Below, piece by piece: positions 17,087 to 18,619 of a stretch of DNA of 64,000 bases (position 1 is the first letter of the stretch; every line of letters begins with the position of its first letter). The DNA lies in contig JAJPRE010000004.1 in the NCBI GenBank assembly GCA_023700245.1, forward strand, positions 24,068-88,067. Direction: 5' to 3'. This DNA comes from Candidatus Thalassarchaeaceae archaeon. GTDB taxonomy: Archaea > Thermoplasmatota > Poseidoniia > Poseidoniales > Thalassarchaeaceae. The translations under genes were made by a program, and so were the position numbers. The notes under the pieces were generated by a model. The model made no database searches and had not been told where the DNA came from. It worked only from the letters and a program-made list of their open reading frames with translations.

Positions 17087-17830
17087 ATGAAAAAGGGTGA
17101 GCAAGTCGCCGGGTTGTCCGTGGAGGCTAATAGAATGGAAGAAGGCTCAATTATTCACATTGATTATGATCTATTTAACGCAAGTACCGAGAAGCTCATT
17201 GAGACTACTCGGGAAGATGTAGCAAAAGAACACGAGGTATTTGATGAAAATCGTACCTATGCTCCTATGATATCAATAGTAGGCTCGGGAAGACTCATCA
17301 AAGGGTTTGAACTACATTTGGCTGATGCAGAAGTGGAAACAGATTATAATTTTGACATCGATGCATCTGATGCATATGGCGAAAGAGACCAAAGTCTAAT
17401 AGAAACTATTTCTCAAAACGTTTTACTAAAGAGTGTTAAAGATACAAATACGCTACATATTGGTGGACCTGTAGAGATTGGCGGAAGAACTGGGATTCTA
17501 CAATTCTTGAGTGCAGGGAGGGCAAGAATAGATTATAATCACCCATTAGCTGGAGTAACTCTTAGGTATAAATACAATATAGTAAAGGTTGTAGAAGACC
17601 GTAAAGAACGTGTTGAAACATTATTGAAGATGAATACTGGTCGTGAAGATTTTGAGGTTGAATTCGATGGTGATGATATGACAGTAACATTACCAGAAGA
17701 AATCTCCTATGATCAAAATTGGCCATATGCAAAATTTTCTTTAGTTCAGACAATAAGGGAAAACCTTGGAGTGGGAATTGTAGTTTTCCGTGAAGTACAC
17801 AAACCTCGTGTAATTGAAGAAGAAGAATAA
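17087..17830 (+). CDS. slyD: FKBP-type peptidyl-prolyl isomerase (archaeal long type)
   Basis: IDY...IETT...GRLIKGF...AYG.R...IDYNHPLAG motifs. Confidence 0.93.
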   Translation: MKKGEQVAGLSVEANRMEEGSIIHIDYDLFNASTEKLIETTREDVAKEHEVFDENRTYAPMISIVGSGRLIKGFELHLADAEVETDYNFDIDASDAYGERDQSLIETISQNVLLKSVKDTNTLHIGGPVEIGGRTGILQFLSAGRARIDYNHPLAGVTLRYKYNIVKVVEDRKERVETLLKMNTGREDFEVEFDGDDMTVTLPEEISYDQNWPYAKFSLVQTIRENLGVGIVVFREVHKPRVIEEEE

Positions 17831-17884
17831 TTTTCTTATAATTAACATTCGTAGGTTTAATGTCACATGACTTCTTAGCAAGAG

Positions 17885-17956
17885 ATGCCTCAATGACGAC
17901 AAAAGGGTTTACTGAGCCGAAAGGCATTGACGTTCCCTATGAGTACCGAGAGGCAT
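17885..17956 (+). ncRNA. Box C/D guide sRNA, probable guide for Cm34 of pre-tRNA-Met
   Basis: Terminal stem AUGCCUC/GAGGCAU. Box C AUGACGA at 17893-17899, a 12-nt guide, box D' CUGA at 17912-17915, GCC-GAAA-GGC stem, box C' UUGACGU at 17927-17933, a 12-nt guide, box D CCGA at 17946-17949. Confidence 0.8.
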
Positions 17957-17998
17957 TCAATAAATGGATTCAAGTTATGCTACTCTTTCCGCATAGTT

Positions 17999-18619
17999 AT
18001 GGGAGATGCTAATGCACTACGTCCACTTATGGCAATTATGTGTATTTGTTTGTTAACTAGCGGATGTCTTGGCTTAGCAATGCAAAGAGAAATAATGGAA
18101 GGTATGCGTGATCCTGTTATAACTATAGAGAAGTCTGATAGATTTGGTTGGGATTATACATTTGATTCTTCATCGGACTTAAATGCAATTTTGTACTCTA
18201 ATGAAACTCCTATTATTTTTGATGAAACAGTTTCAAAATTAGTCATTGAGTTTCGTGCCCAATTTCCTTACTCTTCTACAATTGAAGAAGCCGTCGGAAA
18301 CGAAACAAATGAATATAGATATGTAGAAGTAAGGCTATGGCAACCTGGTCAAAAATCTGCTGGAGGGAATCCATTTTGGGAAGTGAAGGCCACTCAAGAT
18401 TACTCTTTAGAAAGATTTACATTTGGTAAAAGTGATTTAATATCAGGTGAATGGAGTTTTGAAGTCGAAGCCCGAGGTTATGGAATTACTGCCCCTATAG
18501 ATCAACTATCTTTCCATGATCATTTCGAAGTATATGCAACAATTACGAAGCCATGTGTACAATTCCCCGAAACTCAAGAGGGTTTAGAGTGCACATTTAT
18601 CTCTGAATTAGAAGAATAA
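17999..18619 (+). CDS. Hypothetical lipoprotein (start at ATG 17999; the track's TTG at 17927 lies inside the sRNA)
   Basis: Signal peptide LMAIMCICLLTSGC followed by a beta-rich acidic domain. Confidence 0.75.
   Translation: MGDANALRPLMAIMCICLLTSGCLGLAMQREIMEGMRDPVITIEKSDRFGWDYTFDSSSDLNAILYSNETPIIFDETVSKLVIEFRAQFPYSSTIEEAVGNETNEYRYVEVRLWQPGQKSAGGNPFWEVKATQDYSLERFTFGKSDLISGEWSFEVEARGYGITAPIDQLSFHDHFEVYATITKPCVQFPETQEGLECTFISELEE

Follow-up and report, generated by a model that had tools for sequence, protein, structure and literature searches.

In archaea, a box C/D guide RNA encoded in the intron of pre-tRNA-Trp directs the modifications Cm34 and Um39. In the intron-containing tRNA-Met, the guide for Cm34 is a C/D sRNA with a gene of its own, first predicted as sR49 of Pyrococcus (PMC2584109), and as part of the intron joins in the pairing, methylation comes before splicing (Grosjean et al. 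2008, PMC2584109 section 13). Eighteen candidates have been reported and 17 aligned, from Halobacteria, Methanosarcinales, Thermococcales, Methanothermobacter and Methanocaldococcus; all 17 aligned guides carry (G/A)CC(C/G)UAUGAG and none is from Thermoplasmatota (PMC2584109 Additional file 5). The halobacterial members have more degenerate boxes, and a D'-C' spacer of 19-21 nt as against 4-10 nt in the other orders (PMC2584109). Passages of PMC4033218 and PMC6601510 credit Joardar et al. 2011 with the experimental demonstration that sR-tMet of Haloferax guides Cm34, and with its name.

A predicted RNA of this type is encoded in the window, i.e. the whole stretch of 64,000 nucleotides of DNA analyzed here, which comes from a Marine Group IIb (Thalassarchaeaceae) MAG (1.47 Mb, 50 contigs, 36% G+C, ~82% complete). 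Marine Group II, of which no member has been cultured, ranks with the most abundant groups of planktonic archaea, and to our knowledge its non-coding RNA genes are barely annotated. Comparison of the RNA with its putative target indicates that 17885-17956 (+) very probably encodes a box C/D guide RNA that directs 2'-O-methylation to C34 of unspliced elongator tRNA-Met. It is a new member of the known family of Cm34 guides, in which neither Marine Group II nor Thermoplasmatota had been listed, and it would extend the RNA-guided, pre-splicing Cm34 route on elongator tRNA-Met to this phylum. The analysis also yielded, for practical use, a corrected start (17999) for the downstream gene and a covariance model with which the sRNA can be found across the order.

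Like Haloferax sR-tMet, the RNA is encoded apart from the tRNA gene, would act in trans, and has the D guide core CCCUAUGAGU lying across the exon-intron junction with N+5 on C34. As in haloarchaeal sR-tMet, box C is AUGACGA, box D is CCGA, and the D'-C' spacer is base-paired instead of forming a short K-loop. However, the spacer is 10-11 nt long rather than 19-21 nt, the D' guide of the Haloferax RNA is unrelated to that in the window, and the host, unlike Haloferax, is a mesophilic marine planktonic archaeon of the Thermoplasmatota. Pyrococcus sR49 and its homologs in Methanosarcinales, Methanothermobacter and Methanocaldococcus have the guide (G/A)CCCUAUGAG, the target and the pre-splicing logic in common with the RNA described here, but differ in having canonical UGAUGA and CUGA boxes, spacers of 4-10 nt and other D' guides; the guide core of these published members is matched by UCCCUAUGAG in the window. 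The first-pass annotation of the window had likened pairings within the RNA to those of Haloferax sR-tMet. In Rfam, sR-tMet (RF02163) was the best match of the RNA and the sole match genome-wide, although at 23.5 bits it falls below the gathering cut-off of 50 (E = 0.12 locally, 0.044 genome-wide). The RF02163 consensus has an internal stretch of 27 positions compared with 21 in the window, in line with the longer haloarchaeal spacers. The Rfam model thus misses this RNA, and standard annotation would do the same.

Three further systems invite comparison. A dual-guide form found in Methanomassiliicoccales, Thermoplasmata, Poseidoniaceae and Aciduliprofundum has the D guide and architecture of the RNA in the window, but its D' guide AAGAGGGUCA pairs with 23S rRNA 1917-1926, whereas the window copy keeps AGGGUU only. 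The pre-tRNA-Trp intron guide is likewise a C/D guide that directs methylation to the wobble nucleotide of a pre-tRNA whose intron is still in place, but it forms part of the intron of the very RNA on which it acts; the sRNA in the window is a separate gene on another contig. The host's own tRNA-Trp gene (C6:2427-2615) has a 113-nt intron with a full C/D layout (AAUGACGA ... CUGA ... UGAUGA - CAACUGGAGCA - CCGA). We take this to be the well-known guide for Cm34 and Um39 that resides in this intron; its box variants, AUGACGA and CCGA, are those of the tRNA-Met guide. The human box C/D RNPs of SNORD97 and SCARNA97 2'-O-methylate C34 of elongator tRNA-Met (PMC6601510), but they are eukaryotic, are encoded in introns of protein-coding genes and work as two cooperating guides (Vitali and Kiss 2019, PMC6601510).

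Architecture and conservation of the guide RNA

The first-pass annotation had proposed an unannotated box C/D layout with two 12-nt guides, and all of its elements were found (Table 1). The boxes are in the order of archaeal box C/D sRNAs, both guides are 12 nt long and the terminal stem has 7 bp, which places the RNA in that class. Relative to the consensus RUGAUGA and CUGA, boxes C and D are each off at one position and box C' at two or three; the GA dinucleotides that K-turns require are there. Folding to the energy minimum (-19.4 kcal/mol, z = -2.0) yields both the terminal and the internal stem, as well as a contact between the two guides, AGGG:CCCU, which is discussed below.

Table 1. 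Features of the guide RNA locus, its predicted target and homologs with the helix-69 guide
Feature	Position	Strand	Remarks
Promoter-like element TAGGTTTAATG / TAGGTTTA(A/T)TG	17852-17862	+	TATA-like TTTAAT; kept in 7 relatives while flanks diverge (alignment A3)
Box C/D sRNA gene	17885-17956	+	72 nt, elements in archaeal C/D order: ATGCCTC, a, ATGACGA, CAAAAGGGTTTA, CTGA, GCCGAAAGGC, a, TTGACGT, TCCCTATGAGTA, CCGA, GAGGCAT
Terminal stem, 5' half, ATGCCTC	17885-17891	+	pairs with 17950-17956; 7 bp
Box C ATGACGA (AUGACGA)	17893-17899	+	no variation in 25 Thalassarchaeaceae homologs
D' guide CAAAAGGGTTTA (RNA CAAAAGGGUUUA)	17900-17911	+	12 nt; N+5 = G17907
Box D' CTGA (CUGA)	17912-17915	+	CTGA or CCGA in every homolog
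D'-C' spacer stem-loop GCC-GAAA-GGC (GCCGAAAGGC)	17916-17925	+	3-bp stem; canonical stem of internal K-turn
Box C' TTGACGT (UUGACGU)	17927-17933	+	TGACGT 17928-17933 invariant; 17927 is T in at least 90% (alignment A1)
D guide TCCCTATGAGTA (RNA UCCCUAUGAGUA)	17934-17945	+	12 nt; N+5 = G17941; invariant in A1
Box D CCGA	17946-17949	+	invariant in A1
Terminal stem, 3' half, GAGGCAT	17950-17956	+	partner of 17885-17891
Downstream gene, corrected start	17999-18619	+	206 aa, not 230; lipoprotein-like N-terminus MAIMCICLLTSGC
Intron-bearing CAU tRNA	C25:8985-9137		77-nt intron at 37/38; on a contig other than that of the sRNA
Homologs with D' guide AAGAGGGUCA			L106-L109, L117, L118, L121, L162, L164, L210, L214, L311-L383

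Twenty-seven of 80 related loci carry the sRNA unit within 2.5 kb of a gene for an FKBP-type isomerase, five of them in the opposite orientation. In an alignment of 25 sequences (A1), boxes C and D and the D guide are invariant, as is box C' except for its first base; the first-pass annotation had staked its prediction on conservation of the boxes in relatives, and this was borne out in the 25 homologs. It had also pointed out a stem between D' and C' (GCC-GAAA-GGC), and here the stem is kept across homologs, as G-C or G-U and C-G, while the loop is free to change (GAAA, AAAA, ATAT, TCAT, AATT, or 2 nt shorter). The terminal stem is paired in 96% of cells over the 25 homologs, and at one pair three sequences show a double-sided exchange of U-A to C-G. 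This pattern, i.e. fixed boxes and D guide, variable loop and flanks, and stems that are kept, is typical of a guide RNA.

A covariance model (R1) built from the aligned Thalassarchaeaceae sequences matched 132 of 151 Poseidoniales genomes, representing 21 of 22 genera and nearly always in single copy, with weaker matches elsewhere in Thermoplasmatota. The sRNA occurs in differing gene contexts and orientations. In a pattern scan for the C'-guide-D module, using one genome per species, at least 120 stretches were found, and the 80 loci listed include Halobacteria, Methanosarcina, Methanothrix, Methanoperedens, Methanomassiliicoccales, other Thermoplasmata, and Marine Groups II, III and IV.

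The proteins expected of such an RNP are encoded in the host genome: fibrillarin (PF01269, 152 bits) and, in an adjoining gene, Nop5 (PF01798, 93 bits) on contig C25, and L7Ae (PF01248, 69 bits) in the window at 2375-2755. By analogy with the family, L7Ae would bind both K-turns of the RNA, C/D at the terminus and C'/D' in the interior, the latter closed by the GCC/GGC stem, after which Nop5 and fibrillarin would assemble on the RNA.

Pairing of the D guide with the elongator pre-tRNA-Met

The first-pass annotation had predicted that the D guide targets C34 of a tRNA-Met with an intron at 37/38. A search with aragorn, allowing introns, found three CAU tRNAs in the host genome, only one of which has an intron (Table 1). 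The two without an intron read CUCAUAAC and, going by their stems, look like the initiator and tRNA-Ile2. The intron-bearing tRNA reads GGACTCATA/GGGTATTT across the junction (also written GGACUCAUA/GGGUAUUU, the slash standing for the splice site), so that its intron begins GGGU. Bases 17935-17944 of the D guide (CCCUAUGAGU) form 10 Watson-Crick pairs with C25:9015-9024, i.e. with A31-A37 and the first three intron bases, G+1 to G+3, and G17941 (N+5, the fifth guide base upstream of box D) faces C34. The prediction therefore held as to the target, the modified base, the position of the intron and a pairing that crosses the exon-intron junction. It held less well for the exact target sequence: the inner 10 bases match, but the outermost two bases of the 12-nt guide are unpaired (the target has G...U in place of U...A), so that 10 of the 12 predicted target bases agree.

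When the D guide was scanned in the N+5 register against the host rRNAs and tRNAs, tRNA-Met was the top match. The 10-mer ACTCATAGGG occurs four times in the 1.47 Mb on both strands, one occurrence being the antisense of the sRNA gene itself. Because the 10-mer is so rare, a match in an anticodon loop and in the N+5 register is far beyond chance. The spliced tRNA-Met offers the D guide only 7 pairs, which suggests that the substrate would be the precursor and that methylation would have to precede splicing. The D guide of the assembled RNP would thus pair with 10 nt of pre-tRNA-Met, and fibrillarin would be expected to 2'-O-methylate C34, the wobble cytidine, before the intron is removed. The pairing of the D guide with both anticodon loop and intron, with N+5 on C34, is the property shared by sR49 and sR-tMet.

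We compared genomes with and without the sRNA to see how the tRNA-Met intron begins in each. Of 12 Poseidoniales and one Marine Group III genome carrying the sRNA, all 13 have an intron-bearing tRNA-Met gene reading GGACUCAUA/GGG. With the host included, the intron begins with GGG in 14/14 carriers as against GGA in 11/11 intron-bearing tRNA-Met genes of non-carriers; the carrier introns read GGG(C/U), whereas those of the non-carriers (L276-L287, genera g10 and g19) begin GGAC. In one further non-carrier genome (G105), the recovered tRNA-Met copy has no intron. The sRNA model gave no match in any of five genomes of g19 (Poseidoniaceae) or in seven of eight of g10 (Thalassarchaeaceae). The eighth g10 genome (G029) gave a match of 27 bits, which we rejected as a homolog, since the RNA concerned is C/D-like but of another kind and lacks the tRNA-Met guide; this RNA (L299:77-139) has a GCCGC/GCGGC stem, box C AAUGACGA, an internal UGAUGA and box D CUGA. 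A search for the guide pattern with a changed first C allowed gave no credible match in g10 or g19. Candidates for relics of the sRNA fared no better: the one pattern match in G029 had no boxes upstream, and weak model matches under lax filters in the two genera were read as coding sequence or as the different C/D-like RNA.

The two genera that lack the guide and have GGA introns thus lend support to a functional link between the CCC of the guide and the GGG of the intron. This is support and not proof, since the contrast between carriers and non-carriers probably reflects only two independent events, one per family. If the link is real, the guide pairing would be the reason for keeping the tRNA-Met intron and its first three bases in these archaea. 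There is no base-by-base covariation of guide and tRNA among the carriers examined, because the tRNA side, GGACUCAUA/GGG, is invariant in all of them and so leaves no room for compensatory change. Some Marine Group IIa guides have lost pairing at guide positions 2-3 while the tRNA is unchanged.

The tRNA-Met introns themselves (C25:9022-9098 and L122-L134) share a box-C-like RUGAGCG or AUGACGU followed by CCCCU, and have one or two CUGA motifs just 5' of the 3' splice site. A stretch in these introns, CCCCUGAG, resembles the D guide (CCCUAUGAG) minus UA. The motifs could belong to the bulge-helix-bulge fold or to a K-turn.

The D' guide and 23S rRNA helix 69

A scan for the D' guide AAGAGGGUCA joined to the tRNA-Met guide found it in at least 120 Thermoplasmatota species. 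Among the 80 records listed, nearly all are labelled Thermoplasmata, Methanomassiliicoccales, Poseidoniales, Aciduliprofundum or similar, or generic archaeal, one is labelled bacterium, and none is labelled Halobacteria or Methanosarcinales. This guide forms 10 Watson-Crick pairs with helix 69 of 23S rRNA (E. coli 1917-1926, numbered by alignment to MG1655 rrlH) and its N+5 falls on C1920; the rRNA match was equalled by 1 of 300 shuffled guides. In bacteria, it is the protein TlyA that methylates C1920. The D' guide (G)AAGAGGGUCAG is common to Poseidoniaceae, a third Poseidoniales family, Methanomassiliicoccaceae and various Thermoplasmata; its complement, UGACCCUCUU, is in helix 69 of the host 23S rRNA and occurs exactly three times in the genome. 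Dennis et al. 2015 (PMC4644070) describe helices 68, 69 and 71 as hot spots of archaeal methylation and use a minimum of 9 bp for guide duplexes; with 10 bp, the duplex formed by AAGAGGGUCA is longer than this. We conclude that the Thermoplasmatota form of the RNA would ancestrally have been a dual guide, for C34 of tRNA-Met and C1920 of 23S rRNA, with methylation at these sites predicted from complementarity. The helix-69 guide predicts RNA-guided Cm1920 in Thermoplasmatota, a testable proposition for archaeal ribosome modification, and its occurrence in the wider phylum is worth following up, as is the joint absence of guide RNA and intron GGG in two genera.

The D' guide in the window would descend from this helix-69 guide, which is intact in many other Thermoplasmatota. 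It keeps the helix-69 register, with G17907 opposite C1920, and AGGGUU is contiguous at 1918-1923 (5 Watson-Crick pairs and one G.U); beyond it come a mismatch, A.C, and another two pairs. Searches of the rRNAs and tRNAs gave no significant target for this guide, the best match being 9 pairs in 23S rRNA, including a G.U, which 127 of 300 shuffles equalled. Box-flanked stretches of guide length, loosely defined, often score as high in the C1920 register across the genome, and because these stretches and the shuffles score as well, the helix-69 match is no better than chance. A search for a second C1920 guide elsewhere in the host genome gave only loosely box-like chance matches. We also considered the D' guide as a second clamp on pre-tRNA-Met and rejected this, as over 14 genome pairs the complementarity never rose above that of shuffled guides.

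It is possible, though we think rather unlikely, that the D' guide in the window still functions, either by directing Cm1920 through the weak 6+2-bp duplex or by acting on a new target. The guide is nearly invariant in seven close relatives, with one A-to-G change (L014), whereas the adjoining 4-nt loop changes freely, and the base facing C1920 is the one expected from the homologous guide that forms 10 Watson-Crick pairs with 1917-1926 in at least 120 species. However, a contiguous duplex of 5 Watson-Crick pairs and one G.U is well below the common criterion of at least 9 (PMC4644070), in-register scores of this size are frequent genome-wide and among shuffles, and the searches of tRNAs, rRNAs and pre-tRNA-Met gave no target. 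Furthermore, elsewhere in Thalassarchaeaceae the D' guide varies in sequence and is 10-12 nt long, with the register shifted where it has 10-11 nt. The D' guide in the window is therefore best read as a decayed copy of the helix-69 guide that has lost most of its complementarity.

This reading also bears on the pairing of AGGG (17904-17907) with CCCU (17935-17938), which the first-pass annotation had suggested as a contact between the two guides. The contact is present in the minimum-energy fold but has no covariation behind it; as the D guide never varies, the contact cannot show any. Since ACCCU occurs in helix 69 as well as in the D guide, the contact arises automatically, and a remnant of the ancestral helix-69 guide is the better explanation for it.

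A speculative scenario, to which we give a minor share of our belief, is that the Thermoplasmatota tRNA-Met guide RNA began as a two-target RNP and that in Marine Group IIb the D' guide was freed from its helix-69 role yet stayed nearly constant within the clade of the window, so that it would have either a new target or a use for the AGGG:CCCU contact, e.g. in keeping the tRNA guide covered up to the time of RNP assembly.

In three homologs from Poseidoniaceae (L102, L103 and L104, genera g15 and g16), the diverged D' guides UGGACCUG and CGAACUUG form 8 bp, G.U included, with the T-arm of tRNA-Met, CGGGUUC(A/G). The N+5 positions of these pairings disagree and 30-65 of 300 shuffles equal them, and the pairing is probably due to chance.

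Other roles, flanking genes and transcripts

We also considered that the RNA is a genuine C/D sRNA with its main job elsewhere, i.e. at an rRNA site such as 23S UACUC*GUAGGUA, or as a chaperone or timer of pre-tRNA-Met folding or splicing without methylation. The 23S site gives 10 contiguous pairs with the D guide, but one of them is a G.U that adjoins the target base, and rRNA matches of this length with a G.U were common in shuffles of two D' guides (40/300 and 127/300). An effect on splicing is conceivable, as the D guide must open the bulge-helix-bulge of the pre-tRNA. Against these points, the match to tRNA-Met is all Watson-Crick, is conserved across phyla and vanishes together with the intron GGG, and the Haloferax homolog is credited, in the passages referred to above, with guiding Cm34. 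We therefore regard a main job elsewhere as improbable and keep to guidance of Cm34 on pre-tRNA-Met.

That the stretch is no more than the 5' end of the downstream protein gene, read from a TTG start at 17927 through the open frame 17927-18619, with the C/D layout a chance resemblance, can be practically dismissed, as ATG 17999 is invariant with a TATA-like element upstream, a 2-nt indel in relatives breaks the frame from 17927, the 72-nt unit also stands beside other genes and in the opposite orientation, and conservation tracks the boxes and the guide rather than codon positions. The same evidence on the downstream gene shows that the start at 17927 is wrong, as the first-pass annotation had suspected: ATG 17999 is invariant in seven relatives and is preceded at ~24 nt by the TATA-like AAGTTATG, which reads GAAATTATA in relatives, and the indel in the relatives falls between the sRNA and this ATG.

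The sRNA is flanked by the FKBP-type isomerase gene (17087-17830) and by this downstream gene, which encodes a small protein with a lipoprotein-like N-terminus; a search of Pfam gave no family for the 206-aa protein. All relatives of the FKBP protein come from Marine Group II MAGs, and the nearest carry the label Thalassarchaeaceae or MGIIb. The TATA-like TTATAAT that had been noted near 17837 is there, at 17836-17842 and ~46 nt ahead of the RNA, but its sequence is not kept in relatives. The promoter-like element in Table 1 is centered ~26 nt upstream of 17885, the usual distance of an archaeal TATA box, and going by this position it would act as the promoter of the sRNA.

The region is present at 95-99% identity in marine metatranscriptome assemblies from several studies. 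In four runs, one contig of ~0.8-1 kb covers the FKBP gene, the sRNA and a further ~130-180 nt at a depth of 28-78, although such contigs cannot resolve transcript ends; the depth falls sharply further downstream, ~100 nt into the downstream gene. In another run the contig ends at 17955, an end that, in an assembler contig, cannot show a discrete small RNA. These contigs, in which the sRNA is joined to the FKBP gene, are compatible with its expression. Contigs with the sRNA of other Marine Group II species are also found in metatranscriptomes.
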